Source: a bacterium | Lineage (GTDB): Bacteria; SAR324; NAC60-12 | Assembly (NCBI GenBank): GCA_965233585.1 | Contig: CBDDTI010000233.1 | Coordinates: 1-24,355, forward strand | Direction: 5' to 3' | DNA length: 24,355 nucleotides | In this document: positions 1,933 to 24,355 of the stretch, piece after piece | Numbering within the stretch: position 1 is the first letter of the stretch | Layout of the letters: every line of letters begins with the position of its first letter | Position numbers and translations under genes: made by a program | The notes under the pieces: generated by a model | Databases searched by the model: none | Seen by the model: the letters and a program-made list of their open reading frames with translations, nothing else | What the model was told of the DNA's origin: nothing

Positions 1933-2196
1933 ATGGAGTAGTACAGGGACTGTGTTGATAGTTGGAGGCTTAGTCTTAAGTTCGGAAAACTGAATGATCA
2001 GGGAGAAAGTGGAGCGGAGCGAAGCGAATTGCGAGACGGACAAGGGCAATTTTCAAGTAAAGCGAAATTGGAAAAAAAGAGAAGTGGACACCAGCGGACT
2101 CAAGGGATAAGGGAATGGAGGGCAAAGAGGAAGCTCGAATTCGAAGAAAGCGACCCTACCGCAAAGTTCATTCCAGTGGAAACCCGTGCTAGTAAG
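1933..2196 (+). pseudogene. Exon 1 of transposase-exonuclease gene
   Basis: gtcATGG at 1933, with a TAG at codon 3, then an open frame (...LRDGQGQFSSKAKLEKK...VETRASK) ending at a phase-0 donor AAG|GTGAGA (2197). The phase matches exon 2. Confidence 0.5.
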
Positions 2197-2261
2197 GTGA
2201 GAGTTCATTTTGATGAACTCCTTCTTGGAGTTTTGCTTGCCCAGTTTCAAGTGAACCACAT

Positions 2262-3031
2262 TGCTACGACAGCAACTATCGAGGATTGCAATGCAAGATC
2301 AAGACGTGTCGCGAGTCAAGGGGGGCGTAATTTACTGAGACAAAGACTCCAACTTGAAGACAGTGAAATTGGGTTTATTTCGGGTCAACGAGGAGGGTTC
2401 GATGATGCTCGTAAACTGAAAATAATGTTTACAAAATACAATTAACTATAGGGCTAAAATAAACTAAATACAAACTACTGTTGAAATTTGGGGGCGGAAC
2501 CCCAATTCGCATAATAACAATTCGACATTGAAATAATAATGTTCCGCACATGAAGGGTAATCAACTAACTGGAAATGAAATATTGATAAACTTAAGGAAC
2601 CGAAACATGCTTGAAACAATACAAATGGTACTTAAGAAATAAACATGAAATTACAGGTTCCGTTCATAATGCTTCGAACAGACTACTTATTTGCATACGC
2701 ACGAGGGAAAAACAATAACAATGGATTTGAACTAAAATTGAATCGTACAACAATTAAATCGATAAGAATTACATTAACATAACAAAGAAACAAAATCACT
2801 TACATATCTGACCCACACAGTAGAAATACTCCAGGAGAAGAGTGCAAAAAAGGCGACTTGACTTGAACGCGTGGCTTAACACTTCTTATTCTACACAAAA
2901 AAGCCGACTGAACTTTGGCCAAGACGGCGTGACCTAAGTTGCGCAGTACCATAAGCCTTAGCGAGCATTGCGAATGAAAGAAAGTAAACGAAAAACGGGA
3001 ACTAAAAGAAATAAAATAGACAATCTTAACA
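2262..3031 (-). repeat. 3' LTR of BEL/Pao element (770 bp)
   Basis: Direct repeat of 16295-17050. By eye about 4 substitutions and one 14-bp indel (near 2898-2911). Confidence 0.97.
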
Positions 3032-3045
3032 TGGCTCCCCTGAAA
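3032..3045 (-). promoter_or_regulatory. Polypurine tract of BEL element
   Basis: Minus strand reads tttcAGGGGAGcca directly before the 3' LTR start TGTTAAG. Confidence 0.7.
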
Positions 3046-3164
3046 TAGGATATTTCACTCACAAAAAATTCTCTAAAACTATCAATGGAAATGATTAAAA
3101 TAAAGTCACTAACTACAATACGCAGTTCAATCAGGGCTCCTCGTCGGGGATCTACCCCAGGTCT

Positions 3165-6100
3165 TCATACTTCATCAGCATCAGCATCACTTAGAACCAA
3201 CAGGACTAACTTGTTCACTGGGCGATCCAAACTTCTGACAGGTCCCTTTCTCTTGCCATCAGCAGGAATAGCAGCGTCGCCAAGATCGACTTGAACTGAG
3301 CGGATATATCCATCTTTAGAGGGATACGTTTTTGACACACGTCCCAGCTGCCAGCAATTCCTTGGTAGGGTATCCTCTTTCACTATAACAATGTCGCCAA
3401 TGGACAGGTTTCTTCTAGGACGGTTCCACTTAGTACGCTGCTGGAGGCTCAAAAGGAACTCCTTCCTCCAGCGGCACCAGAACTCGTTAGACAGGTGTTA
3501 GATTCTTCTCCATCGTTTTCTTGAATAGAGGTCGGGGCTCTGGAACATACCAGGTGGGGGATCATTTAAATTGGTCACTGTCAATGGACGGCTGTTGATG
3601 ATAGCTTCACATTTACAGAGATATGTCCGCAGGGATTCGTCATCCAATTGGGCGCCGTTCTTCTCTAAAATTGCTGACAAAACACTACGTACCGTGCGGA
3701 TTTGGCGTTCCCAAACTCCTCCCATATGGCTTGCGGATGGGACATTCATCTTGAATGTGATCCAGTCACAGTTGTTCTTGAGTAATTCGTCCTTAATTTG
3801 GTTATCATCGAATTCTGCCACAGCTTCCTTCAGTTCTCTCTTTGCACCCACGAAATTGCTTCCTTGGTTACTCCGGAGTTGACGAACTGGCCCTCTGCGG
3901 CATATGAAACGGCGGAGTGCGTTAATAAAGGATGATGTATCTAGGGAGTTGGCACTCTCTAGGTGTACAGCCCTTGATGCCATACAGGTAAATAGAACAC
4001 CATATCTCTTAACCTCTCTTCTTCCTTCTTTGATTAACCAAGGACCAAAATAGTCCACAGCACTAAAGGTGAACGGCCGTGCTGGGTCTGACCGATCTAG
4101 TGGAAGGTCTGCCATCTTCTGCTCCTCAACTACACTTCTGAGCTTCCGACACTCGAAACACTTTGATATGTGTGAGGCAACTGCAGAGGATCCGCCTACT
4201 ATCCAATACCCACGAGATCAAACTTAATTGATGGTTATGCCTCTTCCTTGATGGTTTACTTCTTCGTGGCAGTGCTTGACGATGAGGTTAGCAATGTGAC
4301 TCTTTCCTGGAAGGATTATAGGAAACTTGACAAACTCTGGCATTTCTGTAGACTTTAGTCGTCCGCCGGCCCTCAAGATACCACCAGAGTCCACGAACGG
4401 GTCGAGTTTGAAGAGTGTACTTGATTTCTTAATGCCCTGGTTCTTATTGGGAACATGCTCTTGGGTGGCTGAGGTCAAAACTTTTATTTCTTCGTCGTAG
4501 TGGATGGCTTGAACTGCTTTGATCATAATCCTCTCTACTTGTTGTATTGTTGCTACTGTGATGAACTGGGGTTGTGACATAACTTGCTTCGTGCTTGCTA
4601 CTTGAGAAGTACTTCTTGTTTGAATGATCTTCGGTAATGGTTTCTCAAGACAGCTGGGTTTCCTAGCCTGAACTCTGTCCTTGAGTTTCTGTATGTACAG
4701 AAAACACAATGCAACAGCCTTCTTTGCCCGGTGATAGTCTGAAAAGCACTCCAGACGGCTGGCCAAGCTTGCAAAGGATGCGTCTGTGCTGGTGACTAGG
4801 GCAACTTTATTCTTGACTTCAGAATCACCTTCAGACAGCGTGAAGATTTCTTTAGCTTCATGTACGGGCCAACAGGACTTATCCTTCCACAGAAAGGCTG
4901 GTCCAGTAAGCCAGCTTGATTTCTGAAGTCCTTGAGGGTTGAGACCTCGAGAGGCGTGATCAGCCGGGTTTGACTTCATGTCCACATAATGCCACTGGTC
5001 TGGGGAAGAGTGCTCTTGAATTTGCTGAACTCTATTGCCAACAAAGATATGGAATCTTCTGGTCTCATTCGCAATATAGCTAAGCACAACTTTGCTGTTA
5101 GTCCAAAATACTTCTTCCACTCCTTCATAGTCTAGTTCCTGCTGTAACGGAGCACTTGTTTTCACTGACACAACAGCAGCTGTGAGTTCAAGGCGTGGCA
5201 CTGTCACAGGCTTGAGCGGAGCGACCCTGGCTTTTCCGATGACAAATGAACAGTGAATGTGGCCTTTGTGGTTTGTCAGCCTTACGTACGAGCACTGGCC
5301 ATATCCCTGGGTGCTTGCATCGGAGAAATGATGCAGTTCTGCACTAGCAATTGGACCAAAGTTCAAGGGCTTGTACCACCGGGGGATAGCTAATTCCTCC
5401 AATGAAGGTAATTCTGCTCTCCGTCTTTCCCATCTCGCCTTTATGGCTTCAGGAACGGGGTCGTCCCAATCTGCTCTTTCTCTACAGAGCTCTTGAAGTA
5501 TTTTCTTGCCCTCCAAGAGAAGAGGGGCCACAAATCCTAGTGGATCATAAATGGAACTGACCGTTGAGAGGATACCTCGTCTAGTGCACGGACGGTCCTT
5601 TAAAACGATTCTGAATTGGAACGAGTCCCTTTCTATGCACCACTGAATCCCTAGGACAGTTCCACTGGCAATTCTTCCTTGTCTAGATCGATGTTCTGGA
5701 TGCCTTCTGCTCGGTCATCAATAGGTATGGCTTCGATAACCTCCTTATGGCTTGAGGTAATCCTGTGCAACTTGAAGCCTCCTCTTCTGCACATTTCCTT
5801 TGTATCTTTAATGAGGGTAACTGCGTCATGCACTGATTCCACGGATGTCAGTCCGTCATCGACATAGAAATTTTTACGGATGAAGTTTGCTGCCTCTGGT
5901 CCTAGATCGGTCTCGTTGTCATTTGCGGACATCTTCAAAGCACAGTCAGCACATCCTGGGGAACTTGTGGCTCCGAAAAGGTGTACTTTAATCCTGAATT
6001 CAGTGAGCTCCTTTGTAGTATCACCATCTTCCCACCAGAGGGAGCGAAGGAGGTCTCTGTCCTGCTCTGCTACTCTAACTTGGTGAAACATTCCTTCGAT

Positions 6101-9100
6101 GTCGCACATCAGGGCTACAGGTTCTTTTCTAAATCTGCACAGGACTCCCACCAGGTTATTTGTTAGGTCTGGCCCTTGACGTAGATGCTTGTTCAGCGAC
6201 TCGTTCTGGAATTCTGATGAGCAGTCAAAGACAACCCGGATTTTAGTGAGCTTCTTCGGGTGATACACACCATGGTGTGGGATGTACCAAGCTTGTCTTT
6301 CTTCTGACTGGTTGGGGCCTGCCTTTCCGCTAGATTCTGCTTCCATGGGAGGAACCTTCTCAGCAAAACCATTACTTATTACCTTTTCCATGAACGCAGT
6401 GTAATCATCCTTGTATTTCCTGTCACGCTGGAACCTCCGTTTCAACTGGATTAAACGGCGTAAAGCGACTTCACGGTTATTCGGGAGAATTGAGGCTGGC
6501 ACTCTCAATGGCAACGGCATCTCATAGTGGCCATCTTCACAGTGACGAATTCCACTTTCTACGATTGACAGGAATTTTCTATCCTCTTGCGAAAGAGCTT
6601 CTTGGGAAGAGTTCCCTTCTAAGAAATCTGTCTCGAACATTTTCTTCACTGCATGAGGGTTTATTTCCTCCTTAAGCTGGACTTTGGAAATGAAGCTGAG
6701 ACTTTTTGGGGTATTACTGCCGATCTCGGGAGACATAATTCTGTGACACATAGAGGGCTCCAGATCTTCTTCACCTTCTTGCCTTTCTTGGTGTGGAGTG
6801 ATTGGACCGATGATTCCCCAACCCAGGAGGGTCTTGACTGCCTACGGATCGTCCCCCTTTCCAAGAACAACTTCTCTAGGTGTAATCGCTCGTGGGCAAT
6901 TGCAGCCAATTAAGATTCCAACATCTGTACCACTTTGATAAGGATGCAGCTTGTTTGCAACATTCATAAGATGTGGCCATTTCTCAGCAACTTCTGGGGT
7001 AGGAATTTGATTCCTTCGAAACGGAATACTTTCTCTGGAATACAACTTGGGCAGCTCTATCTCAACTCTCTTGTCCAATCGCTTAATCATTAGACCAGAT
7101 ATCTTCTCAACAGAAATTTCTTCCTTTCCCAGCATCATGTACAAATTTAGTTTGACCTCCGGGCCCTTTAAACCAAGATCACGCAGAGTTTCAGACTTGA
7201 TGAAAGTTGAGTCACTGGCATCATCCAGGAGTGCATAGACTAAAACTTCCTTGTCAGGACTGTCTTTGTGATGCAACCATACATGGACAATCATAGAATT
7301 GGTGACACTACTCCCCTCGCCAACCGTATGAAAAACATGGGAAGTGTTGCTGGACGACTGATCTGGCTTGAAGGTCTGGCTGAATCCTTTGACTCCTTGT
7401 CATCTTGTGAATCATAATGGAGAATCGTTGGGTGTGGTCTTTTACACTTCTGACATGTCAGTCTCTTGCGGCAATTCTTCGAGTAGTGACCTTTGCCGAG
7501 ACAACCAAAGCAAAGACCCACAGACTGGATAAAGTCGAGGTGCTCTTTAACAGCTTTCTTCTTGAATTCATCACAGTTGGAGATAGTGTGAGGTTTTGAA
7601 CATACAGGGCAGATTACTGAAGGTGATGAGGTTTTTGAGTCTGCTGGTGGACTACTGCTCTTTGGAGGGTCACCTGTAGCACTTAACAAACTGTTTAAGT
7701 TAGCCGGAGGTCTTCGGTTCCTGTCCCTGGGATTCTTTTCCTTCTCAAACCTTCTATTGCGTTCTGACTTAAGGACATCAGGGGAGAAGACTGGGTCCGT
7801 AGCAAGATCAGCTTCTGTCTCCACGAATTTCACGAGATCATGAAATGTAACTACTTGTCCACAATTTTTCTTCTTGTCAAAGGCATGACGGCACCACTTC
7901 ACTCCTGAATACGAGGGTAGCTTGGAACTGCCTTGTTTCAGCACCTCCACAGAGTCCAAATCACTCAGAAACTTCATGCTTCGCATAGCTTCTTGACATT
8001 GTCCTAAGAAATCTGAGAAAGCCTGAAGCTCCGTACTCTGGCCTTCACCGATCTGTGGCCACTTCCTTAGACGTGATTTATAAGCATTTGAGACACGGTG
8101 GGGATCTCCAAACCTTTGGGCAAGCAGGTTCTTGGCTCGCTTGTAGCTATCACTCTAGCTCAGAGTTACAAAACCTTTGATAACATCGTTGGCTTTTCCT
8201 GTGGTATACTTGTTCAGGAAGTACAGTCGTTCTTTATCTACAGTAACACGGGTTTCGATAATAGTTTCAAAGGCTCTCATGAATATGGGATAGTCGAAAT
8301 AGTTACCACTGAAAGTTGGTGGTTCTAGGACTGGAAGGGAACTGATCCGCTGCTGCTCAGCGATAAGGGCACTGAGCTCTGTTTGCCTGGTCTGAAGCTT
8401 GACAATCTCTTGAAATGTGTCTTCGCTTAGGCCTGGACTTTGCATCTCTTGCTCTGACTTAAATGACGGTGGTGTGAATGGATTTCTAGAGCTTAAGGAT
8501 TGATGTTCCACCTTCACAGGAAAACATGGCGGCTCTAAAGGGAATGGTTTGCAAGGATCTGGAGGTACCTTCACTTCAGCTTCTGGCTTGACAGGCATTA
8601 ATTAAGAGCGGCTCCGATGGCGGCATGCCAAAAGGGTTTCCGGGAGTAGAAACTTCAAGAGTCGGTAGATGAGGCTGTTTGAATTTTAAAGGTGTGGCCA
8701 ACTCCTTTGGCACAAAAGGAGTAGCGTCTAGATTCAATCCACTTCGTTCTTGAAACCTTTAGCTACATATTTCACTTTGTTTAGCCGGACTGTAGTTTTC
8801 TTCATCCTCCAGTACCTTCATGGCGTGCATCTCTGCCTTTGCCATTTCCAGTTCCTTCATCTTTTTAATCCTTTTTAGCTCGGCCTCCTTGTCTAAGTAT
8901 TTCATTTCGGCTTTTAATTTAGCGGCCTTGGCTGCAGCCTTGATCTTCCTTGAACGTGCAGAGGAGCTGGACAATTTGGAAGATTTCGTGCTAAACGAAC
9001 CACTTGAGTGTGAGGACTTAACTGACGATTTTCTTCAAAGGCCCTTTTTTCGACGGCGTGAATTCGGCTGCTGATTTTCGGGCGCAATTCACTGAATTCG

Positions 9101-9127
9101 CGATCTATTAAGTCAAAATATCGGTAC
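3165..9127 (-). pseudogene. BEL/Pao gag-pol, main part (gag, Zn knuckles, protease, RT, RNase H, integrase), with several frameshifts and stops
   Basis: Three Cys/His knuckles (CPVCSKPH, CFGCLGKGHYSKNC, CQKCKRPHPTILH). Protease YALLDDASDSTF. RT WYIPHHGVYHPKK, RVVFDCS, HLFGATSSP, NFYVDD. RNase H HHFSDAS and VPRLELTAA. Integrase VDYFGP and SHMGGVWERQIR. C-terminal LQQRTKW...WQLGRV...RPVNKLVLL. Broken into about nine ORF pieces. Confidence 0.96.
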
Positions 9128-10301
9128 CACAGGTAGCCCAAGCTCGATATATGAGCAGCTCTTTATATGTTGACCTTTGCATTGTTACGTGACTCGAGCG
9201 ATTTGCATATTTATAAGGATTTGTATGGGGAAAATAACGATTGTTTCTGTAACCTATGAAAATGTAGCGATTTAAATAAAAATCGTCTTACCTTACTTTA
9301 GTTGAGTGTTTTTTCCCTCCTGTGTGGTCTTTGAGCCGATTTATGGCCATTCTGTTAGTTTTAGCTGAACCGGTTTGCTCTCTCTATATATACTTACCCA
9401 AGGTTGGATTCTCGTCGATCCGATATGCCGAAGGAAAACGGGCGTAAATTCTCTTCAGCAGCTCCAGTCGCCTCCAAATTCCGGGTAGAGCACGGACGAT
9501 AGTTACTTTTTCCATCCGTGGTCTTTTCTTGGCGTCGAATCTTCACGGAGGCCGAATAAAACGTCGACAATCTCTGAAAACTTTCCCGTTTTCGGCCATC
9601 GAAAGGCTTTGTTCGAAATCCGCGTTACCCAAACGGTCAAAAGTTAACTGAGCGACCCGGCCTGAGACTCAAATTACTTCCACTCCGGGTGGGCGACAGT
9701 CCTTTGCTCAAAGGTATTTCATGGGAGCAAAGGACTGTCGCCCACCCGGAGTGGAAGTAATTTGAGTCTCAGGCCGGGCCGCTAAGTTAACTTTTGACCG
9801 TTTGGTAACGCGGATTTCGAACAAAGCCTTTCGATGGCCGAAAACGGGAAAGTTTTCAGAGATTGTCGACGTTTTATTCGGCCTCCGTGAAGATTCGACG
9901 CCAAGAAAAGACCACGGATGGAAAAAGTAACTATCGTCCGTGCTCTACCCGGAATTTGGAGGCGACTGGAGCTGCTGAAGAGAATTTACGCCCGTTTTCC
10001 TTCGGCATATCGGATCGACCAGTACCCGACCTTGGGTAAGTATATATAGAGAGAGCAAACCGGTTCAGCTAAAACTAACAGAATGGCCATAAATCGGCTC
10101 AAAGACCACACAGGAGGGAAAAAACACTCAAATAAAGTAAGGTAAGACGATTTTTATTTAAATCACTACATTTTCATAGGTTACAGAAACAATCGTTATT
10201 TTCCCCCTTCAAATCCTTATAAATATGCAAATCGCTCGAGTCACGTAACAATGCAAGGTCAACATATAAAGAGCTGCTCATATATCGAGCTTGGGCTACC
10301 T
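9128..10301. repeat. Long inverted repeat: ~580-bp arms with a 15-nt spacer
   Basis: 9128-9709 is the reverse complement of 9725-10301 plus 15027-15029. Spacer aaaggtatttcatgg (9710-9724). By eye about 10 substitutions and two 1-bp indels. Confidence 0.98.
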
Positions 10302-10632
10302 TGTTGAAAAATTACATTATTTTTGAACTACACTCTTACGAAATGCAGACTCTTGACTCTTTTCATTTCATTGATGCTAACTTAAGTTTATTCTTAGGAT
10401 TTTCTGACTGCTAAGTTTGGGGCATTTAAGAACTATCTAGAATTTTCCCGGAGTTTTACTGTACCGGTTTTAACAAGTTTTTGTAGATTGCGTGGCAAGT
10501 CCCTCGTCAGTTTTTTCCTCGTCAGCTTTTTGTAATTGCGTCAGATTAAAAACTTTTGACTTGACTGTTTGATAGTTTGTCGTTGGTGTTTTCTTGTCCA
10601 CGGCGGGGTGGTTTTTGCGACGTTTTTCAACA
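10302..10632 (+). repeat. Copia 5' LTR
   Basis: Matches 14691-15021 except one visible substitution (taccGGtttt vs taccGAtttt). 10-bp terminal inverted repeat. Confidence 0.98.
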
Positions 10633-10646
10633 GGTTATGGGCCCAG
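10633..10646 (+). promoter_or_regulatory. Primer binding site for an initiator tRNA-Met half-molecule
   Basis: GGTTATGGGCCCAG immediately after the 5' LTR. This is the PBS type of Drosophila copia, complementary to the anticodon region of tRNAi-Met rather than to its 3' CCA end. Confidence 0.9.
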
Positions 10647-10744
10647 GACGATGTCGCTGCGTCGTTGAAGTTGTTTTCGTGCTGAATTGAAGCGAATTTC
10701 TGGCTGTGTTGCCTGGCCTCCTCATTAATTCAGAAAAAACAAAG

Positions 10745-13700
10745 ATGGCGTCTGAATCCTTGAAGTCCACCGTGAATGCTGTTGTTCCTTTGAATGGGAA
10801 GAATTATCCAACGTGGAAAGTACAGTGTCGAATGGCTCTGATGAAGGAAGGGTTGTGGAACATTGTTGATGGTACTGAAGCTGCTCCTGGTCCGGAGAAT
10901 GGTACACGAAGTTCCTCGCACGAAGAAATCGAGCGCTGGCGATAATCGTGCTGTCCCTTGAGCCGTCGCTGTTGTATTTAATTGGAGACCCTGAGGACCC
11001 GACCACTGTGTGGGAGAAACTGGCAAACCAATTTCAGAAGAGAACATGGGCGAACAAGCTGGAACTGAGGCGAAATCTTTTCTCTTTGCGGTTGAAGAAT
11101 GGTGGGTCCGTGCAGGAACATGTTAAGGCCATGACTGAGATCTTTGAAGGTTTGTCAGTGATTGGAGACCCAATTTCAGAAGAGGATCGTGTAGTGCATT
11201 TGCTAGCCAGTCTACCAGACTCGTACAGCATGCTGGTCACTGCTTTTGAGGCGAACGTGGAGGTTCCGAAGTTTGAAGTTGTTACTGAGCGGTTGCTGCA
11301 TGAAGAACGGAAACTAAAGGAACGAGCGGATGTTAGAGTAAGGAGCGAGAGAGCAATGACAGGGCAACAGCGATATAAAGCGAAGGGACAGAAGTGCCAC
11401 CACTGTGGAAAATTCGGTCATATCAGGCGGAACTGCAAAGAATGGGTCAGGACCAAGTCAGAAGCCAGAAGGAAACCAGAAACACCACAAGCCAGCCAGG
11501 AGACCAGAAACAAGCTGAAGGCAAATAGAGCCGAGGTGAAACGGAGAGACAGCAGCAGTTCGGATAGTGACTGTACTGGGTTGATGGTGAACCACATGAT
11601 GTCGGCGAGTTGCAATAGCCCAATGAATGATTGGATTGTGGACTCAGGAGCAGCCTGTCACATGTGCAATGATGATAAGCTGTTTGTCGAACTCCGTAGC
11701 CTGAAGAAGCCACTGGAGGTCACGCTCGGAGATGGATGCGCAGTGGAAGCGACAGGGCAAGGAACTGTTGTGTTGGAGATGGCATCAACAAGTGGCAAAA
11801 CTAGTAGATGCAAATTACATGAGGTTCTGTATGTGCCTGATCTGTCATACAACTTGCTCAGCGTATCGAAGGCAGCGGAAGCTGGAAAGGTGGTTGAGTT
11901 TGATGAAGTCAGTTGTCGAGTTTTGGATGCAAACCGGAAGCTGATCACCGCTGCCACAAGGAAAGGAAACTTACACTACCTGAACTGTTTGACTGATCGT
12001 CAACAAGCCAATGCAGCTGACAAACGAAACCAACCGACAAAGGAAGACATTTGGCATCAGCGTTATGGTCATCTGGGAGTGCAAAACCTGCGAAAGTTGG
12101 CTAAGGAGGAGCTGGTTGATGGTTTTGATTACAATTCATTGCGAGATGTTAACTTCTGCGAGCCATGTTTGGAAGGAAAACACCAGAGAAGAAAATTTCC
12201 CACCGATGGAGGCAAGCGGTCAGGTGAACTGCTGGGGTTGGTACATAGTGATGTGTGTGGAAAGATGAATGCGAAGTCCTTAAGTGGAGGTGAATACTTT
12301 CTGACATTCATTGATGACAAGTCTCGCTATGTGTGGGTTTACATCCTGAAGCACAAAGATGATGTCTTCCCATGTTTCCTTGAGTGGAAAGCTCTGGCAG
12401 AAAGATCTACAAATCAGAAGTTAAAGGCTCTACGCACTGACAATGGTGGTGAATACATGTCTACAGAGTTCCAAATGTACTTGAAGAAGGAAGGAGTTCG
12501 TCATGAACTGACTGCATGTACCGAAGACTCCTGAGCAGAATGGTGTTGCCGAAAGGATGAACCGGACACTCGTTGAAGGCGTTCGAGCTATGTTGGCTGA
12601 TGCGAGGCTGCCACATCGTTTCTGGGCAGAAGCATTGTCTACAGCTGTTTATCTTCGAAACCGAAGTCCTACAATGGCAGTTAAAGGAATGACTCCATTT
12701 GAAGCTTGGACAGGAGAGAAACCAAATGTGGGACATCTGAGAGTTTTCGGATGTGCAGCATATGCTCATGTAGCCAAAGATGATAGGAAGAAACTTGACG
12801 TAAAATCCAGGAAGTGCATTCTTCTGGGCTATGGCACTGAGACAAAGGGATACCGGATTCATGACCTAAAGCATGCTAAAGTTCTCTACAGTCGAGATGT
12901 CATATTCAATGAATCCAGTCGTGGAATTGAGGAGCTAAACGAAAAAGAAGAGAAGGACGAGACACCTTACGTAGAATCTGGTCGTCTTCCAGATCAAGAG
13001 CCTGATGAGCAGCCAGTTGCTGATGGGTTAACAGAACCTGTGCTGTCAAGACCAGAAAGGGACAGAAGGCCGCCTGACTATTATGGAGAATGGGCAGATG
13101 TCACAAGCACTGGATCAGATGAACCGAAGACTGTTAAGGAAGCACTAGCCGGTCCAGACAAAGCCAAATGGATGACTGCGACGGAGAAGGAGATGGAATC
13201 CCTTCGCACTCATGATGTCTGGGACTTAGTGGAACTGCCAAGGGACCGAAAAGCAGTTGGGAGCAAGTGGGTGTACAAGGTTAAGAAGAAAGCTGATGGA
13301 TCAGTTGAACGGTACAAAGCTAGACTTGTAGCACAAGGTTTCACTCAGAAGTTTGGAATTGATTATGATGAGACATTTTGTCCAGTTGTCCGCTTTGAAT
13401 CAGTTCGAACAGTCATCGCGTTAGCTGTGCAGAACGGCCTGAACTTGCATCAGATGGATGTTGCAACTGCTTTCCTGAATGGAGAACTGAAAGAAGAGGT
13501 GTACATGAAACAGCCAGAGGGTTTTGAAACCGTGGGCCAGGAACATTTGGTCTGTAGGCTAAAACGAAGTATCTATGGCTTGAAGCAGTCATCGAGATGC
13601 TGGAATTCTGTGCTGGATAAAAGGTTGAAGAAAATGGGTTTTATGCAGACAGACAGCGACCCATGCATCTACGTGGCTACAGAAGGAGAAATGTTTGTAA

Positions 13701-14683
13701 TTGCTGTTCATGTTGACGACATTGTGTTGGCCACTAAGAGTGATAAGCGGATGGCAGAAGTCAAGAAAGGTCTTGCTGAGGGGTTCGAAGTCAAGGTTAT
13801 GGGAGAGCTCCACCATTTCCTGGGTGTTAAGGTGATTCAGAACCCACAGACTGGAGAAGTGTGGATCGGTCAAGAAGCTTATGCTCAAAGAGTCCTGCAG
13901 ATATTTGGAATGGAGAATGCCAAACCACTCCATACACCAGCAGATGCCAGCTTGAAACTTGTGAAGACAACCGAGGACTGTGAGAACGTTGATCAAGTAC
14001 AGTTCCAATCGACAGTTGGTAGTCTGCTGTACCTGTCAATAATGACAAGACCAGATATTACGTATGCTGTTAGCAACGTGGCCAAGTTTTGTGCAAGTCC
14101 TTCCAAACAACACTGGACTGCTGTTAAACGGATTATGCGCTACCTGAAGGGGACTTTGTCCTTGGGACTTCTTTACGGGAAAGATGGATCAAGTGACTGT
14201 ATTAGATACTGTGATGCTGACTGGGCTGGAGACATGGATGATCGCAAGTCAGCGTCAGGATATATGTTCCAGATCAGTGGTGCAGCAATCAGCTGGAGAA
14301 GCAAGAAACAGCCGTGCTTAGCACTTTCGACCGCGGAAGCTGAGTACATTGCATTGGCAAGTGCAGCACAAGAAGCAATCTGGATGCGACAATTGCTGAC
14401 AGATGTAAGAAATCCCCCGAGAGAACCAACCAGGATTTTTGAAGATAACCAATCAGCTATTTGTCTGGCCAAGAATCCTCAGTTCCATGGACGAGCCAAA
14501 CACATTGGGATCAAGTACCACGTCATTCGAGAACAAGTAGAGAAGGGGACTGTGGAACTGCAGTACTGTCCCACAGAGGAAATGATTGCTGACATGCTCA
14601 CCAAAGGACTGAATCGAGATCGATTCATAAAGCTACGGCTGATGTCCGGACTGATAAAGATGCCTGATTTCCTTTGCGAGTGA
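10745..14683 (+). pseudogene. Copia gag-pol polyprotein with two frameshifts (~10900, ~12514)
   Basis: MASESLK...LNGKNYPTWK. Knuckle CHHCGKFGHIRRNC. Protease WIVDSGAACHM. IWHQRYGH...CEPC. Integrase LVHSDVCG, LRTDNGGEY, TPEQNGVAER. RT YKARLVAQG, QMDVATAFL, YGLKQS, HVDD. RNase H DADWAGD and ADMLTK. Stop TGA at 14681-14683. Confidence 0.96.
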
Positions 14684-14690
14684 GAAGGAG
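14678..14690 (+). promoter_or_regulatory. Copia polypurine tract overlapping the pol stop codon
   Basis: GAGTGAGAAGGAG directly before the 3' LTR. Confidence 0.85.
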
Positions 14691-15021
14691 TGTTGAAAAA
14701 TTACATTATTTTTGAACTACACTCTTACGAAATGCAGACTCTTGACTCTTTTCATTTCATTGATGCTAACTTAAGTTTATTCTTAGGATTTTCTGACTGC
14801 TAAGTTTGGGGCATTTAAGAACTATCTAGAATTTTCCCGGAGTTTTACTGTACCGATTTTAACAAGTTTTTGTAGATTGCGTGGCAAGTCCCTCGTCAGT
14901 TTTTTCCTCGTCAGCTTTTTGTAATTGCGTCAGATTAAAAACTTTTGACTTGACTGTTTGATAGTTTGTCGTTGGTGTTTTCTTGTCCACGGCGGGGTGG
15001 TTTTTGCGACGTTTTTCAACA
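14691..15021 (+). repeat. Copia 3' LTR
   Basis: Direct repeat of 10302-10632. Confidence 0.98.
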
Positions 15022-15029
15022 TACCTGTG

Positions 15030-15249
15030 ATCGGTACGAAGCCTCTCTGTCCTCTCCAGTTTCCATAAGATCATGGTATTGCTTAAAAGCTTGATTCAAA
15101 TCTTCTTTCAACGAATCGAGTTCCTCTGCTTCAGATGTGAGAATTTCGATATCCTTTAGCTCTTCAAGCAGAAAGTTTGCTTTCTTCATTTGCCTTATCA
15201 AGCGTTTCTTTGCTGCATCTCTGTGATGCCTCAAGGTTTCTATCATGTA
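15030..15249 (-). pseudogene. Stranded middle piece of BEL gag N-terminus
   Basis: MIETLRHHRDAAKKRL...METGEDREASYR joins in frame to both neighbouring gag pieces once the MITE and foldback are removed. Confidence 0.9.
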
Positions 15250-16056
15250 CCTTATTCGTACTAATTTTCGCGAGGCTTTAATTTCGCGATTTTCGCGATT
15301 TGTAAAAAATCGCGAAATTAAAGACTCGCTAAAATTAGGATACGCGAAAATTAAACACGCGAAATTTAATACACTTCTATAATTGCTTTAATCAATGATT
15401 AACTGCGTTCACAGCTACATGGTAATTGTCATTAGTCTATTTATCATCTACTTCAGCTCTTTCTTCATCTGAATCACTCATTTCTTCTTCTTGTACATAT
15501 AGCTCTTTTAAAACATCTTTCGTGCAGTCATCAAAATGTCCATTTAGGTCAGGCTCTTTATAATTAGCTAACACAAGCTCTTTGTATTTGTCAATTATCA
15601 ATCTGTTCTTTGCTGGGGCTTCGATATAGACAGTGCACCACAGTAATAATATAGACATTATTCATCTATAGTTTTGTTCTGTTTCAAGGGTGTTAAGCAT
15701 TTATAATCATTACAGAACTGTGTGGCTTAGGTATTTGAAATTATATTTTTACAATTGACTTTTATTAGTACTATATTGCAGTAGCATCTGATTGATTGGC
15801 AGTATTTGCTTGTTTTGTCTGATTATCAACGCTATTTCTTTTACGTAATTGTAAATCATGATTGTAACTCAATCGTTATTTAAGTGATCAATCAATAAAA
15901 AAAAACGGTTTTCTAAGTCTGTCTATTGTCAATTTTCGCGAAATTAAATGCCCTAAATTTGTCATTTTTTGCAAAATCGCGAAAATTAATGCTCGCGAAA
16001 TATTCGTGTTCCAAATTCGCGAAATTAAGTGCCCGCGAAAATTAGTACGAATAAGG
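15250..16056. mobile_element. TA-flanked MITE, Tc1/mariner-pogo type (807 bp)
   Basis: Perfect 23-bp TIR ccttattcgtactaattttcgcg, extending imperfectly to ~40 bp. TA at 15248-15249 and 16057-16058. Multiple subterminal TTTCGCG/CGCGAAA motifs. Removal restores ...TEKGKEY|MIETL. Confidence 0.92.
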
Positions 16057-16232
16057 TATTCCTTTCCTTTTTCAGTTAACGTCCGTTTCCGGTCATGGGT
16101 AGAAAGGTCACGCGTAGCGCCATCGCTTTCTTGTAATTGCATGATAAACTCTTCGCTTCCACGTACATCATGCGACGAACTTAACAAATTGCTAATAATA
16201 TCTTTTGTACTTCCTTGGTCAGTTACACTCAT
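16057..16232 (-). pseudogene. Start of BEL gag ORF
   Basis: ATG 62 nt downstream of the 5' LTR. MSVTDQG...RKRTLTEKGKEY; the RxxTEKG motif is typical of BEL gag N-termini. Confidence 0.85.
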
Positions 16233-16294
16233 GTTCTCGCCTTAATTGCTCATCCTAATCCTTGAAGATGATCAACACGGTGGAGATATTTTAC

Positions 16295-17050
16295 TGTTAC
16301 GACAGCGACTATCGAGGATTGCAATGCAAGATCAAGACGTGTCGCGAGTCAAGGGGGGCGTAATTTACTGAGACAAAGACTCCAACTTGAAGACAGTGAA
16401 ATTGGGTTTATTTCGGGTCAACGAGGAGGGTTCGATGATGCTCGTAAACTGAAAATAATGTTTACAAAATACAATTAAATATAGGGCTAAAATAAACTAA
16501 ATACAAACTACTGTTGAAATTTGGGGGCGGAACCCCAATTCGCATAATAACAATTCGACATTGAAATAATAATGTTCCGCACATGAAGGGTAATCAACTA
16601 ACTGGAAATGAAATATTGATAAACTTAAGGAACCGAAACATGCTTGAAACAATACAAATGGTACTTAAGAAATAAACATGAAATTACAGGTTCCGTTCAT
16701 AATGCTTCGAACAGACTACTTATTTGCATACGCACGAGGGAAAAACAATAACAATGGATTTGAACTAAAATTGAATCGTACAACAATTAAATCGATAAGA
16801 ATTACATTAACATAACAGAGAAACAAAATCACTTACATATCTGACCCACACAGTAGAAATACTCCAGGAGAAGAGTGCAAAAAAGGCGACTTGACTTGAA
16901 CGCGTGGCTTAACACTTCTTATTCTACACAACTTTGGCCAAGACGGCGTGACCTAAGTTGCGCAGTACCATAAGCCTTAGCGAGCATTGCGAATGAAAGA
17001 AAGTAAACGAAAAACGGGAACTAAAAGAAATAAAATAGACAATCTTAACA
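16295..17050 (-). repeat. 5' LTR of BEL/Pao element (756 bp)
   Basis: Direct repeat of 2262-3031, TGTTA...TAACA, followed by TSD CACAT. Confidence 0.97.
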
Positions 17051-17226
17051 CACATACCTGTCTTTTTATACTGTTGATCTTTCCCCCCTTCTCCTCCTCC
17101 CCTACCCAGCAACAATGTTCACAGTTATCGAGCATATCAACATGATTGCATTTTTTATTTTTCTGCACTTCAATTGTATATTCACAGAACAAATTGTAGC
17201 TCTAATTTTACAATAACTTTTGTTAG

Positions 17227-17326
17227 AAACAAAAGATACAGGAGGATTCAATACCACATGGTTGTAGGCTAATTGATCTAGACGAACTCAGAAATGGTTT
17301 GAAATCTTGTCAAGTATGTAAATCAG
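17227..17326 (+). pseudogene. Exon 2 of transposase-exonuclease gene (not in the ORF track)
   Basis: ttttgttAG|AAACAA...AAATCAG|GTGAGA, 100 nt, encoding KQKIQEDSIPHGCRLIDLDELRNGLKSCQVCKS. Its phase-1 end fits exon 3, and it supplies the first CxxC pair. Confidence 0.75.
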
Positions 17327-17795
17327 GTGAGAAAATTGAAATTATTTCAAGTCAATGTTTTCTTCATGTGTGCTGATGAATTTCTTCTAATACAACAAAA
17401 ATAGATGTTTCAATATACCAGCAACTGAGAAAATATAGGACAGAAACAGGTCAACCCAGCATTTGACATACATGAGTAAGACTCAGGGTGGGACTATCAG
17501 GTGACAACTCCTTTAGTCACACAGTCCTCTCATAACACTAGGTTTGGATAACATGAAAATTTATAAAACTGATAAAACGTGACTGCAGTTGCATAGTGTA
17601 ATAAATATATTTCTTTTCAAGCAAGCACAGTTCTGCCTTCTGAGGAAAAATGTGAATTCAACAATTTCAAACTAGTCACACTTCTATTTCCTTGTTTCAG
17701 TTTTATGATACAAAAAGCAAATGAAATAAAACAAGACAACTTTTATTTACACCCCTAAATTAAAAGTCATACTATAAAGGACTAAATCCACTTAA

Positions 17796-18443
17796 GGTGA
17801 TTCCCTAGTTTTGCATTGCACGTTCCTACTGCGCACGATTTTCGCGTCATCAGCGCGCGTGCATGAGCGCGCGCGCATGAGCGCGCGCGCGTACAAAACG
17901 TAAGAGATTTCCCTCAAATTAAGCTCGATAGCGAGATAAATTCCCCTTTTCTCTTAAACGAGCACGGTGACCCCCACTTTTTATTTTATAAATTCAGTGA
18001 GAACAATATCCTCAATAACTGAGAAAAAAATTGGCAGAAATCTATGGCTACTTTTTTGGCAAATGAAGGAAATGCTACAGATAGAGACATAACGGGCCCA
18101 ACAGAGTAAGTCCAAATTATGTTTCCTTTAAAGGATAAAAATATTTATTAATAATGCAGGGTATTTGAAGCCATTTTCTCTGGGATGTAGATGAATAAAC
18201 AATCAAAGAAAGTCGAACTCTAAGTGATATAACACGCCGCATTGGAAAATAACCGCTCTTATTTGTTGCGCACGGATATCACCAAAAGTCACCTTAATAA
18301 CCGTATTTGTCAGCATTGTGGCGTGAAAACAAGCACGGTGACCCCCTCTTTTTATTACGTTTTTAATATCCCCTTGTCTTGTAACATCAACATACCAAGT
18401 TTCATCGGAAATCTATGGTGGGTTCTTTTACTAGAGAATCACC
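17796..18443. mobile_element. Non-autonomous Kolobok-type element (648 bp) in intron 2
   Basis: TTAA at 17792-17795 and 18444-18447. TIR ggtgattccctagt vs ggtgattctctagt (13/14). Internal direct repeats agcacggtgaccccc (~17961, ~18332) and gaaatctatgg (~18037, ~18408). Confidence 0.88.
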
Positions 18444-18594
18444 TTAATAAACTATACAGGAATAAACCCAGAAGATAGTCAGACTCTGTACATGAAATTT
18501 ATGTAGTTACACAATTTGATTTAACGTGTTAGCAATTTCAACAAAAAGTCATCTGCTATTCCATTCATGGTGTCTTTCATGGTTTAATTTGTAG

Positions 18595-21172
18595 CACCAT
18601 TGTCATTACGCAATGTAACGGAAGAAAGGAGATTTGGGCTGGGCTCTGTGTTCACAGTCAGTTGTACTTCGTGTGGAGAAAAAAATAATGTGAAGACATC
18701 ATCAGAGCACAGAAGTGGTCAGCGAGGTCCCCCTACATACAACATAAATTCCCGGGCAGTTCTCGGTTGCCTTCATACTGGGATTGGCAATACTCACCTA
18801 AACAATCTGTTATCAACACTTAATGTCCCAACTATCAACCCTGTGACATTCAAGAGTAGAGAAAGGAAGATAGGAACTGCTGTTGAAAAAGTGGCACGAA
18901 AAAGCTGTCTGGAAAATATGGCTTTAGAAAGAAAACTAGCTTTAGATGGTGGGGCAACAGCAGACAGTGATGGCTTTGTTAGTGTTTCGTGCTCGTATGA
19001 TATGGGATGGCAGAAGAGGGACCGGGGGCATAATTCTTCCTCAGGGCATGGAGCAGTTACGGGATTAACAACTGGCAAAGTCCTAGATTTTGCAACAAAA
19101 ACTAAGACATGCAGAATTTGCAAAAATGCTATGAAAGCAGGAAAAAAGGCAACTGCTCATGACTGCCATCTAAATCACTCTGCCTCCTCTAAGGCAATGG
19201 AGCCACAGGCAGCCATTGATTTATTCACACGCAACCTCAAATCTAATGTCAAGCTGTCTGTTTACAATGGTGATGACGACTCAACTACGGCTGCGCACAT
19301 CAAACAAAAAGTTCCATATCCAGTTGAGAAATGGACTTACATTGTACATGCAAAACGATCTCTATCCACGAGGCTTTACAATTTGGCACAAAGGGGAAAA
19401 TTTGCAAATTCATCAGTTCTTTCGCAAAGAGTAGTTGGTTACTTGTAAAATGTTTCAGCTACTGCATTACTCAAAACAAAGGAAATCCCTCAGCCCTTCA
19501 AAAAGAACTGAAGAGCATCGTTCCTCACGCATTTGGCAATCATGAATGTTGCAATGAATCCTGGTGCAGAGCTAAACAAGATCCACTTAATTACAAACAC
19601 TCTGAACTTCCCTATGGGAAAGATCTCTTTGGAGATCAATTACGAAAATCAATTAAGGCAATTTTTGATGAATACTGCACGGATCTGGTGGTAAAAAAAA
19701 CTTTCACCAGCTGCAAACTCCGAACGAAACGAGGCTCTAAATAGTGTAATTGGATCCAAAAACCCTAAAATTAGGTTCTATGGAGGTAGTTCAAGTAACG
19801 ACTTTAGGGCGGCCTGTGGGATTCTCAACCAAACTTAGGATATCACCATATCAGTCAAACACTCGACAGTCTTAATATTGAACCTGGAGATCATTGCCTT
19901 AATCACATTGACAAAATGGAACACAACGCCAACCTAAATAAGCTAAGGAAATCAAATCTTGATTTCAAACGTCCAACTACACAACAACAAATTGAAATCT
20001 GATGGCAATGAAGAAGCTAAAGAAGGCCCAATGTACCAAAGAAACATTGGACTGAACCTCGATCCGAATAAACCTGATAAAGTGGCAAATGAAATTGATG
20101 TCAACATTAAAATCACCAAAGTGGAGTTACAGCATTTTGAAAAATTCTTAGCAGAACTGACTGTCAGACCTGTGGCTGCGCAACATCCTTTTAGCGGAAA
20201 CAATGTTTACAACTTTATAATCTTTGACATTGAAACCAACACTTTAGGAAAAACGGCAGAAATTTGTCAATTGTCAGCATTAGATGGATCTGGATTACTT
20301 TAGTTTAACGAGTACGTTCTCCCATCCAAGGATGCTGATATTCATGCATCTAGAGTAAATAAACTGAGTGTTCGACGAGTTAATGGAGCCAGAACGCTAT
20401 GCAAAGAAGACAACCCAGTTACGTCTATTCTCATCGATAAGGCAATAGAAAATTTCTTGACATTCCTACAACGAACTGCTCAAAGTGTAAAGTCTGGTGA
20501 CGAACAAACCTATACGGTATTAATTGGCCACAACTCGCAAGTCTTCGATACGCCTACTCTTCTTCGTCAAGGTGGAAACCAGTTCTGCCAAAGCCTGTCG
20601 TCCTTAAACGTGCTTTTCTCTGACAGTCTTCCCTTGATGAAGAAACTTGTGAAATGTAAACATCCGTCACTGATGTCAACAGATGGTTCGACTGTAAAAA
20701 CCAACCAAGCGTCAATTTACCAGAAGCTGTTCCACCGAACTTTCCCTGCGCATGATGCAATGGAAGACGTAAGAGCACTAAGAAAAATCCTGTTCAATTC
20801 CAGCCTCAACGTTAGCGACGAGATGTTAACGGAGATCATGTGCACCACAAAACACGCAGAAAACGACATGAAGTACCTCGATCACCGCCATGCGCTAGTC
20901 CAGACTTTTAAACGTAAACTTTACCAACCAACCGATCCATCTTTTCCTATCAAACAACAAATAGTCGAGAAAATCGCAGGAACTGGACTTTCGTATCAAC
21001 ATCTGGAAGATATTTTTGAGAAATTTGGAGAGAAGGCACTGATTGGCGTGTTGTCGCTTCCGCAGCAGCGAACAAATCTCCTCGTGTCACCAAGACAAAA
21101 CGAATCCTGGCCAGTATCGTTGAACACTTTCAAAAGAAGAAAGCCAGAATTCAACAGACAGAAAATCCATGA
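18595..21172 (+). pseudogene. Exon 3: DDE transposase core (Mutator-like/Kolobok type) fused to a DEDDh 3'-5' exonuclease
   Basis: Acceptor ttgtAG|CACCA. GLGSVFTVSCTSC, YNINSRAV, SYDMGWQKR (D ~18999), CRIC...HDCHLNH...SSKAMEP, GDDDS (D ~19272), VPHAFGNHECC..WC, SERNEALNS (E ~19731). Then FDIET (20226), IGHNSQVFD, HDAMED (20751), and a tail PRVTKTKRILASIVEHF ending at TGA 21172. Frameshifts near 19445, 19700, 19823, 19972 and 21065, and an in-frame TAG at 20301. Confidence 0.88.
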
Positions 21173-21260
21173 ACTTTTACGTTTTGAAGGTAAGCTGTCG
21201 CAAGAAAAGTCTAATTTCTTTCCCCGAAATAAGCGCCACGTGCGATCTCTGAAGCCGTAC

Positions 21261-21346
21261 ATTCTCGTCCCCAGAGGCCGCGCTCCTTTTGGTCAGCACC
21301 AAGAATCGCGACCTCTGGCCTTCACAGCGGTCAAACGACTGGGAAC
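21261..21346. repeat. Short GC-rich hairpin repeat, probable MITE fragment
   Basis: Imperfect stem-loop 21271-21318 (ccagagg/cctctgg, cgcg/cgcg, ttggt/accaa) inside attctcgtccccag...ctgggaac. Confidence 0.55.
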
Positions 21347-21947
21347 TCGCGTGAACACGCGCGTGATTTACGCACTTCCGGTCACTTTCACTCTTCATCC
21401 CACAAAACTCCGCCACTCGGACCATTTCGGTACTAAGTTCAATCATTCTGCCCCTACAAACGTTCTTTTCTCGAGTTTTACTGATTAGGCAACGGCCTCT
21501 CTGATCCGAAAATCTGCCCCCAGAGAGACCAACGACAACTATCGCGATAAAAACACAAGTCTTTATGTTTCGCTACGAACTCGAAAATTCGACAAGAAAA
21601 TTCATTATTGTTGCAGAGACAGTTTCTTTGTTGAAAAAGATGTATAAAAGAGACGCCCCTTTTAGAGCTGTGTTTAAGGTAAAAACCTTAGCTGTTTTGT
21701 TTTCGCCTTATCCTCGCGAAATAAAACACATACCGCGAAATTTTAATCTGCCGCCATTTTGGCGCTTGCTTGTTTCTATAGAATTGGTGCAATCCATTCC
21801 CACGCGCGCGCGCTTGGCTTAAGCATGCGCACTCATTTGACCGCTGTGGGCCTCTGGCCAAGCCTCTGGCCCCCTCCAGTGAGATTCCGGCTCTGATTGG
21901 CTTTGTAAACACCATAGAATGAGACCGGAAGAGAAATGTGATTCAAT

Positions 21948-24042: not shown

Positions 24043-24355
24043 GTACTTTATTGTCAGTGAGTGTTCACTAGCAAAGTCTATAAATTACAACTGGACAGGC
24101 TCTTAGTTACGTGGGTATCCAGGTGTCCTCTGGACACCTATTATAACTGCGGACAAACGTTCTCAACTCGACGGATACATTTACATTGATGTACACTTTA
24201 ATCCGTAGGTTGAAACTAAAAGATAAACGAACTAAAAGTTACAACATGAATAAAAAAAAAAGAATTGTACCAGCTGCCAACGAAATACAGCTAATAAGAA
24301 ACGACGGTAAAGATATACTTACATTGTAACGGCCACGAAAAACTACATTAAACAA

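Follow-up and report, generated by a model that had tools for sequence, protein, structure and literature searches.

The stretch of DNA analysed here (the window: all 24,355 nt of contig CBDDTI010000233.1, or C233, in the 12-Mb, 747-contig assembly GCA_965233585.1, which is filed as prokaryotic) was found to carry, from position 1598 to ~21256, what is very probably a decayed and insertion-riddled copy of an autonomous DNA transposon of the KolobokD lineage. The largest coding part, exon 3 (18595–21172, + strand), encodes a DDE transposase to which a DEDDh exonuclease and a helical tail are joined with no new start in between, as had been claimed in an earlier note made from the sequence alone (the original prediction). 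Exon 3 is collinear from 18600 to 21169 with an intact relative, P0002 (864 amino acids, aa), which is 94% identical to the window over its first 286 residues. The lineage was named KolobokD in 2022 and the fusion itself is therefore not new, as KolobokD is already described by Kojima & Bao (PMC9587614). The closeness of the KolobokD module to Plex9 and to PML's C-terminal domain appears to be unpublished.

Contigs of four public runs (X1, X2, X7 and X15) were aligned to the window, and the parts of the main element referred to below are:

1594–1612, + strand: 5' terminus of the main element, TTAA (common to a neighbouring element, unit A) followed by GGTGGCTCTATATAG
1933–2196, + strand: claimed exon 1, basic and resembling a nuclear localisation signal, GT donor at 2197, coding status unsupported
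17227–17326, + strand: exon 2, with AG acceptor, GT donor and an in-frame stop immediately upstream
18595–19750, + strand: exon 3, transposase part, from the PF20700 match and collinearity with P0002
20205–20903, + strand: DEDDh 3'-5' exonuclease domain, from profile, structure and alignment comparisons
20949–21172, + strand: SAM-like helical tail (Pfam PML_C), stop codon at 21170–21172
19444–21061, + strand: inactivating lesions, the same indels relative to the window being seen in three or four of the four runs

Transposase and exonuclease form a single protein

In 29 of the 45 relatives that exceed 502 aa, PF20700 co-occurs with an exonuclease or PML_C domain (PF22123, PF00929 or PF25244), and none of the other 16 exceeds 757 aa. 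All four relatives scanned have the transposase first, Exu_RNase_H_like/RNase_T next and PML_C last, and P0219 also has the transposase-exonuclease-PML_C order, with a PML_C score of 73 bits. The fusions in this set come from corals, an anemone-like set and a wasp (those named being Oculina, Montipora and the wasp Venturia), and mollusc fusions (Ruditapes and Mytilus) were recovered in a second search.

In intact family members, one open reading frame (ORF) of ~850–910 aa encodes five parts, namely an N-terminal C2C2 finger, a Kolobok DDE transposase (with its DxxH signature and a CCHC finger), a linker that is conserved, the catalytically complete DEDDh 3'-5' exonuclease, which has the Plex9/Exu/TREX fold, and the SAM-like PML_C tail. 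The linker (P0002 residues ~470–530; window ~20000–20180) contains a conserved motif with the consensus KEAxEGxTYESxIGLNLD, and its residues E478, G479, Y482 and P527 are invariant in 14 fusions.

Features of the KolobokD lineage

According to PMC9587614, Kolobok elements produce TTAA duplications and have 5'-RR...YY-3' termini, unlike piggyBac. Of the protein features given there, a C/DxxH signature is common to Kolobok, hAT, P, MuDR and Dada, a Cys/His cluster before the catalytic E belongs to the description of Kolobok, and a CCHC finger after the first D is found in few lineages, KolobokD among them. KolobokD is the lineage that encodes a DEDDh exonuclease, which is described as similar to Exuperantia (Exu), TREX and ERI1, and is recorded from molluscs, arthropods and cnidarians (PMC9587614).

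In 14 full-length fusions, D134, D225/D227, E378 and D247-x2-H250 (P0002 numbering) are invariant, as are C285, H310, H315, C318 and C323. In the CCHC finger (C171-x2-C174...H187-x-C189), C171, H187 and C189 are invariant and C174 is present in 13 of the 14. The protein features of KolobokD set out in PMC9587614 are thus found in 14/14 fusions (13/14 for one Cys), a DEDDh exonuclease is encoded together with the transposase, and the fusions come from the same three phyla that are reported there. The published lineage and the window family share a DDE transposase, a CCHC finger after the first D and a downstream DEDDh exonuclease, and nothing essential differs from the published description as available. 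KolobokE, KolobokP and KolobokH resemble KolobokD in joining a Kolobok transposase to an additional nucleic-acid enzyme, but in place of a DEDDh exonuclease they have a lambda-exonuclease-like PD-(D/E)xK nuclease, a nuclease of the His-Me finger type and a RecQ helicase, respectively (PMC9587614).

The window itself matches PF20700 at 18588–19448 (E value 8.9e-81), and every motif listed in the original prediction for the D/D/E triad and the DEDDh residues was present. The triad is made up of the D of YDMGW (18999–19001), GDDDS (19272–19280) and the E of RNEALN (19731–19733). The transposase part of exon 3 also includes the second Cys pair, the CCHC finger, the DxxH signature (YxxH here) and the Cys/His cluster. 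The reading of the window retains all residues of the CCHC finger and of the Cys/His cluster, and the D, D and E of the triad, with Y at the D247 position. The exonuclease residues are D (20226–20228), E (20232–20234), D (20547–20549), H (20751–20753) and D (20766–20768), lying in the motifs DIE (20226–20234), HNSQVFD and HDAMED (20751–20768).

The identification of a TTAA-targeting, cut-and-paste Kolobok element is thus borne out by the set of transposase features and by the Kolobok-like termini and flanks described below. The original prediction had left undecided whether the lineage was catalogued and had named this as what would remove its novelty; it is catalogued, in PMC9587614. The element itself adds little, being one more degraded copy, from a cnidarian, of a lineage that received its name in 2022.

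Gene structure and decay of the window copy

Three exons had been proposed, and they fared differently. Exon 3 is secured by its collinearity with P0002, and exon 2 by its splice sites and by homology. The product of exon 2 has a basic N-terminal stretch and, as part of a C2C2 zinc finger, its first Cys pair (CQVC), and the same 'GCRLID...C..C' half of the finger was found at the N-termini of P0007, P0040 and P0219. By itself, exon 2 (33 aa, too short to score) matched 0 Pfam families. Exon 1 was not supported: its third codon is TAG, its ATG reads GTG (A>G at position 1933) in contigs of X1, X2 and X15, its comparison with Pfam gave a chance-level match only, and no counterpart was found in the N-termini of relatives. 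As only ~240 bp would separate exon 1 from exon 2 downstream of it if the insertion between them were absent, a 5' exon at that place is plausible but unproven. The 15-kb 'intron 1' is not an ordinary intron, as it consists mostly of nested long terminal repeat (LTR) retrotransposons.

The need to repair frameshifts in order to read the protein was confirmed, with breaks in the frame near 19444, 19693, ~19830–19973 and 21061. Relative to other copies, one base is missing after 19444, one base is extra at 19693, and 8 and 13 bases are missing after 19973 and 21061, respectively. The indel sites from the four-run comparison coincide with breaks in the reading frame relative to P0002, and the stretch from ~19830 to 19973 must contain one or more additional frameshifts. 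The loss of 13 bases places the last 38 codons of the tail in another frame. The PML_C match of the window tail scores 16.7 bits, below the 27.1-bit cutoff, whereas that of P0002 (30.6 bits) is above it.

An in-frame TAG is present at 20301–20303, where P0002 has a residue. Comparison with 14 relatives also revealed substitutions at the family-invariant D247 (Y) and R190 (H) and at the near-invariant G141 (D) (P0002 numbering). With at least four frameshifting indels, one nonsense codon and substitutions of invariant residues, the window copy is a dead pseudogene.

Termini and related elements

A TTAA|GGTG terminus had been predicted to precede the gene and was found at 1594–1601. The main element starts as TTAA|GGTGGCTC (1594–1605), and its first 8 bases are those of the terminal inverted repeat (TIR) of unit A. 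The octamer TTAAGGTG occurs seven times in the window against 0.9 expected, a count of seven being reached by none of 100 shuffles. Leftwards of 1594, 11 contigs of run X15 depart from the window into flanks unlike one another (agreement 0.41), and the depth over 1612–1628 is in the thousands. An inverted subterminal 'AAAATGGCG' motif at 1641–1649 and 21750–21758 was considered and set aside as too weak to use.

Two further elements with similar ends are present in the window:

775–1597, − strand: unit A, a non-autonomous Kolobok-type element, TTAA at 775–778 and 1594–1597
17792–18447, + strand: miniature inverted-repeat transposable element (MITE) in intron 2, 648 bp, TTAA on both sides, termini GGTGATTCCC...GAATCACC

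Unit A, which is oriented oppositely to the main element, is 815 bp long and derives by deletion from a sister family. Its TIRs are 17 nt long, begin GGTGGCTCAATAGGGTT and GGTGTCTCCATAGGGTT and are alike at 15 of 17 positions, and it retains a remnant of a KolobokD C-terminal ORF in which residues 856–885 of P0007 match 1453–1364 (− strand; E value 4e-6). Further copies of unit A are located on contigs C427, C628 and C46. In all three copies examined in the assembly, TTAA is present on both sides, the ends are GG...CC and the flanks are different.

The MITE, which has GGTG...CACC ends, has at least ten near-full-length matches of ~88–91% in the assembly, and TTAA was found on both sides in five of the seven copies examined. 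An empty site, formed by a joint of 17790 to 18443, was identified in X1 (side 87) and in X15. Neither unit A nor the MITE shares DNA similarity with the main element beyond the first bases of the TIR. The combination of GG...CC TIRs with TTAA target-site duplications (TSDs) was therefore observed in unit A (3/3) and the MITE (5/7), whereas the main element in the window provides only the 5' end.

Alternative interpretations of the locus

Several observations weigh against the assignment to an autonomous KolobokD transposon. No convincing 3' TIR or CACC|TTAA was found in 21173–24355, nor was the TSD of this copy; the reverse complement of the 5' end (10–20 nt) was sought with as many as 4 errors and CACCTTAA with a single mismatch, and the first 63 nt were aligned locally. 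The 12-Mb assembly contains no second full-length copy and the ORF is single-copy there, the only other trace being a P0007-like C-terminal fragment on C317. No exon-exon joint was present among the 15 of 42 joints listed, and contigs labelled as RNA carry intron sequence; the RNA label is a guess for X2 and X7 and is undetermined for X15, and the absence of such joints neither supports nor refutes splicing. The assignment rests on the published description of features rather than on direct sequence comparison. PF20700 is labelled 'Mutator-like transposase', not Kolobok, by Pfam, and no mention of PF20700 was found in the literature searched.

The Pfam name would favour a Mutator-like element (MULE), and TTAA is also the target of piggyBac, so that a transposon of either type, rather than a Kolobok, could be envisaged. 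However, MULEs make longer target duplications. The 4-bp TTAA flanks seen here, together with GG...CC termini, separate Kolobok from piggyBac, which has CCC...GGG termini (PMC9587614), and a family with GG...CC termini and a PF20700 transposase is not piggyBac. The description of Kolobok in PMC9587614 is also matched by the CCHC finger that follows the first D and by the Cys/His cluster ahead of the E, and a MULE or piggyBac origin is thus very unlikely. The single ORF copy in the assembly, the missing 3' TIR and the presence of introns would also suit a transposase-derived host gene that has been domesticated and is no longer mobile. Against this, several frameshifts and a nonsense codon mark the copy as a pseudogene, and it starts at a TTAA|GGTG terminus at which many contigs of another run diverge. 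In addition, diverged copies (from <90% to >99% alike) are present in the four runs and deletion derivatives with TIRs exist, and domestication is, if anything, slightly harder to credit than a MULE or piggyBac. Hardest of all to accept is that two neighbouring genes have been misread as one. Many database entries do hold the exonuclease part alone, but transposase and exonuclease occupy one uninterrupted ORF in P0002, P0007, P0009, P0040 and P0219, among others, and such single-ORF fusions, rather than separate genes, are common among intact homologues. The standalone entries adjoin fusions in the tree described below (for example, Acropora P0124 with the fusion P0017, 100/99*), which fits their being fragments or truncated gene models. 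A decayed KolobokD transposon hence remains the preferred interpretation.

The exonuclease module

The exonuclease reading of the window itself (P0047, which includes one X) was used in an exhaustive HMMER search of 1.84 billion representatives, which returned 836 relatives at an E value of 1e-3 or better; the best 150 of the 836 were all stronger than Plex9-level matches. A word-indexed search with the window exonuclease found cnidarian-type relatives only, and vertebrate sequences were obtained only via an alignment of divergent standalone proteins. Among solved structures, P0047 matched only four chains of ~190 aa (E values 3e-11 to 6e-7), one of which, 9MRC, is zebrafish Plex9.1 (PMC13659232). 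With a 35-sequence family profile, the Plex9-type chains were matched at E values of 7.7e-25 to 5.7e-21 and Exuperantia at 1.4e-8, and neither TREX1 nor human PML gave a match to this profile at an E value of 0.01 or below. The description of the exonuclease as 'PML/TREX-like' was thus upheld in that the solved structures nearest by sequence are of the Plex9 type and the tail matches PML_C.

An AlphaFold model of the module (pLDDT 93.7) was compared with solved structures, giving the following matches:

5L80_A, Exu EXO+SAM: Z 23.4, 238 residues aligned, model residues 1–288
9MRD, Plex9.1: Z 23.1, root-mean-square deviation 1.8 Å, 31% identity
TREX1 and TREX2: Z ~20

The human PML PXL structure was absent from the fold-search matches, the structure library (April 2026) being possibly older than that entry. 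Plex9 (9MRC, 9MRD), the best sequence match among solved structures, has a complete set of DEDDh residues. Plex9 proteins, however, are standalone host proteins of ~200–245 aa without a transposase, and those of teleosts match the EXO part only. PML, unlike the fusion, has an RBCC/TRIM N-terminus. Exuperantia (5L80) has the same two-domain EXO-SAM arrangement as the module, and relatives showed Exu_RNase_H_like matches and, for the tail of P0206, a SAM_Exu match, but the sequence match to Exuperantia is far weaker than that to Plex9. TREX1 and TREX2 share the DEDDh fold though not a sequence match at the threshold given above.

Exu is a pseudo-nuclease without the DEDD residues (PMC13659232), whereas the family described here keeps them. 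The five DEDDh columns are conserved in 33, 33, 31, 33 and 35 of 35 relatives, as well as in the window, an indication that the nuclease of this family is functional. Judged by these residues, the family appears able to carry out catalysis, in contrast to Exu and human PML.

A protein of 507 aa, P0170, combines an Ets DNA-binding domain with a following exonuclease and PML_C, and is placed with standalone proteins in the tree. It could be a real host fusion or an artefact of the gene model.

Relationship to Plex9 and PML

A maximum-likelihood tree was constructed from 65 exonuclease domains and 205 columns. The 65 were drawn from 67 selected proteins, P0123 (match split in two) and P0349 (weak partial match) being dropped. 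Of the families that the original prediction had proposed to compare, Plex9 and DnaQ-like proteins were placed, but PML (PML-CDE) and TREX, like Exu, are not among the rows, and the root is formed by two distant, long-branch DnaQ-like rows.

The window groups with P0002 (100/99*) within a cnidarian group, and falls with the cnidarian fusions outside the vertebrate clade. The 13 vertebrate rows (12 teleost Plex9-type and one shark) form a clade of their own at 95/88*, to which P0265 is the sister. With the DnaQ-like root, the vertebrate clade falls with the Mytilus and wasp fusions (84/89). The fused state changes seven times on the tree, at least four of these changes being forced by starred branches, and Kolobok-fused exonucleases occupy at least four separately supported positions. 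An alternative topology in which the vertebrates and outgroups lie outside all invertebrate rows was not rejected in an AU test (delta lnL 4.3, p 0.186).

The KolobokD module stands out clearly as the closest Plex9 relative found here. That vertebrate PML-I and Plex9, and possibly insect Exuperantia, owe their EXO-SAM module to the exonuclease-SAM module of a KolobokD transposon is conceivable but rather doubtful. In its favour, Kolobok-fused exonucleases hold several supported positions in the tree, the vertebrate clade falls among mollusc and wasp fusions under the DnaQ-like root, the PML_C tail is common to both, and PML is reported only from jawed vertebrates in PMC10123124; against it stand the AU test result, the placement of the root on two distant long-branch rows and a set of rows without PML-CDE, TREX and Exu. 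The reverse direction, in which a Kolobok element captured a host Exu/Plex9-like gene, is equally open. The suggestion that such elements are a mobile reservoir for PML-like exonucleases is accordingly compatible with the tree but, given that the AU test left the alternative standing, is not established.

If the vertebrate genes did come from such an element, the origin of PML's C-terminal domain would be explained. The 'exonuclease III' domain of PML would then be a domesticated part of a transposon, and the restriction of retroelements by Plex9 and gar PML would represent a repurposed transposon function.

The two bodies of literature concerned do not appear to cite each other in the text available. 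That on transposons ties KolobokD to Exu, TREX and ERI1, and that on PML ties its C-terminal domain to Plex9, Exu and TREX1. PML, Plex9 and the SAM-like tail are not mentioned in the accessible text of PMC9587614, and transposase, transposon and Kolobok are likewise not mentioned in the accessible text of the PML/Plex9 papers PMC10123124 and PMC13659232. No paper linking the two subjects was found in a search that covered neither subscription journals nor Repbase Reports, the only one to name both being a review that draws no connection between them. KolobokD itself was met in PMC9587614 alone, which was also the top match, and the only relevant one, for exuperantia, transposase and DEDD together.

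Two named proteins lie beside fusions in the tree, the Acropora 'exuperantia-like' protein (P0124, with P0017) and a Mercenaria protein named 'uncharacterized' (with the Ruditapes fusion). Both had been taken as standalone, and from their placement in the tree both look like fragments of transposon copies. Annotation pipelines have given ORFs derived from KolobokD such names as 'maternal protein exuperantia-like', 'protein PML-like', 'DNA polymerase III PolC-type-like' and 'three prime repair exonuclease'. As bearers of such names sit beside transposase fusions, the names should be treated with caution in invertebrate genomes.

Possible role of the exonuclease

In the proposed mechanism, the transposase would excise the element and insert it at TTAA, and the fused exonuclease would work in cis at the transposition complex on DNA 3' ends made during transposition. 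It might trim flanking or overhanging strands at the ends of the element or at the donor gap, in keeping with the proposal in PMC9587614 that the KolobokD exonuclease degrades DNA intermediates from the 3' end. Such a putative end-processing role is put forward tentatively, at somewhat less than even chances. Alternatively, the exonuclease could be a counter-defence or competition module that degrades cytosolic DNA or retroelement cDNA, like TREX1 and Plex9, and so shields the element, or its host cell, against DNA sensing or competing retroelements. By sequence, Plex9 is the nearest to the domain, and its closest relatives that have been characterised (Plex9, gar PML and TREX1) suppress LINE-1 retrotransposition (PMC10123124). 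However, the covalent fusion to a transposase in 29 of the 45 longer relatives suggests action at the transposition complex, and a counter-defence function appears unlikely, distinctly more so than processing of the ends. A third candidate, an Exu-like RNA-binding role without catalysis, was set aside as unlikely because the catalytic residues are conserved.

Later insertions and the 3' boundary

The remaining repeats in the window are:

2257–17050, − strand: BEL/Pao-type LTR retrotransposon, Peptidase_A17 (E value 2.5e-46), filling 'intron 1'
9120–15029, + strand: secondary insertion in the BEL/Pao element, with Retrotran_gag_2, rve and RVT_2
21257–21930, strand not assigned: unrelated repeats replacing the expected 3' part, matching C434 (80.7% over 636 bp)

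The LTRs of the BEL/Pao element (2262–~3031 and 16295–~17050) are 99% alike. A form free of this insertion was represented by a joint of 2256 to 17051, with five shared letters, in a single X15 contig with a short side of 26. The secondary insertion includes a Copia-type element (10302–14990) with long open gag-pol frames, the LTRs of which (10302–10601 and 14691–14990) are reported as 100% identical over 300 nt. To judge from these features, its insertion into the BEL/Pao element seems to have been very recent. A near-perfect 1.17-kb palindrome (9131–10301), with arms that are 98–100% complementary (nested pairs I1–I3), abuts the 5' LTR of the Copia-type element. Both the palindrome and the Copia-type element are absent from another form, in which 9119 is joined to 15030 (X1, side 171, and X15).

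At the 3' boundary, the X1 copy diverges at 21256 and many contigs begin at 21260. A 60-bp sequence (the 21260–21320 arm) occurs as inverted pairs ~260 bp apart on C250, C211, C38, C669, C645 and other contigs, which suggests a small high-copy MITE; the window has one such arm at the very point where the KolobokD copy ends abruptly. Beyond the remnant, on its downstream side, an ORF at 21923–22192 has a match to zf-AD, the zinc-finger associated domain (E value 5.8e-8), and may belong to a host gene or to another element, and the region 21930–24355 is unique in the 12-Mb assembly except for one 42-bp repeat.

Origin of the window DNA

The window is eukaryotic DNA: its stop-to-stop ORFs are mostly retroelement polyproteins, and the proteins closest to its own occur in invertebrates, among them stony corals and an anemone. 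These features, together with eukaryotic repeats shared with many other contigs, identify C233 as host rather than bacterial sequence. The window most probably comes from the DNA of a cnidarian (stony-coral-like) host, which binning placed in an assembly filed as prokaryotic.

The 12-Mb assembly is rated 92% 'complete' as a prokaryote genome, and many of its contigs share the eukaryotic MITEs and repeats of the window. The G+C content is 35–45% in 742 of the 747 contigs and just beyond this range in the remaining five. Much of the assembly appears to be animal host DNA. A protein with an exonuclease and PML_C, P0296, is also filed at NCBI under a bacterial metagenome-assembled genome (Candidatus Thiodiazotropha, a bivalve symbiont), and probably likewise represents transposon DNA of a host that ended up in a symbiont genome through binning.

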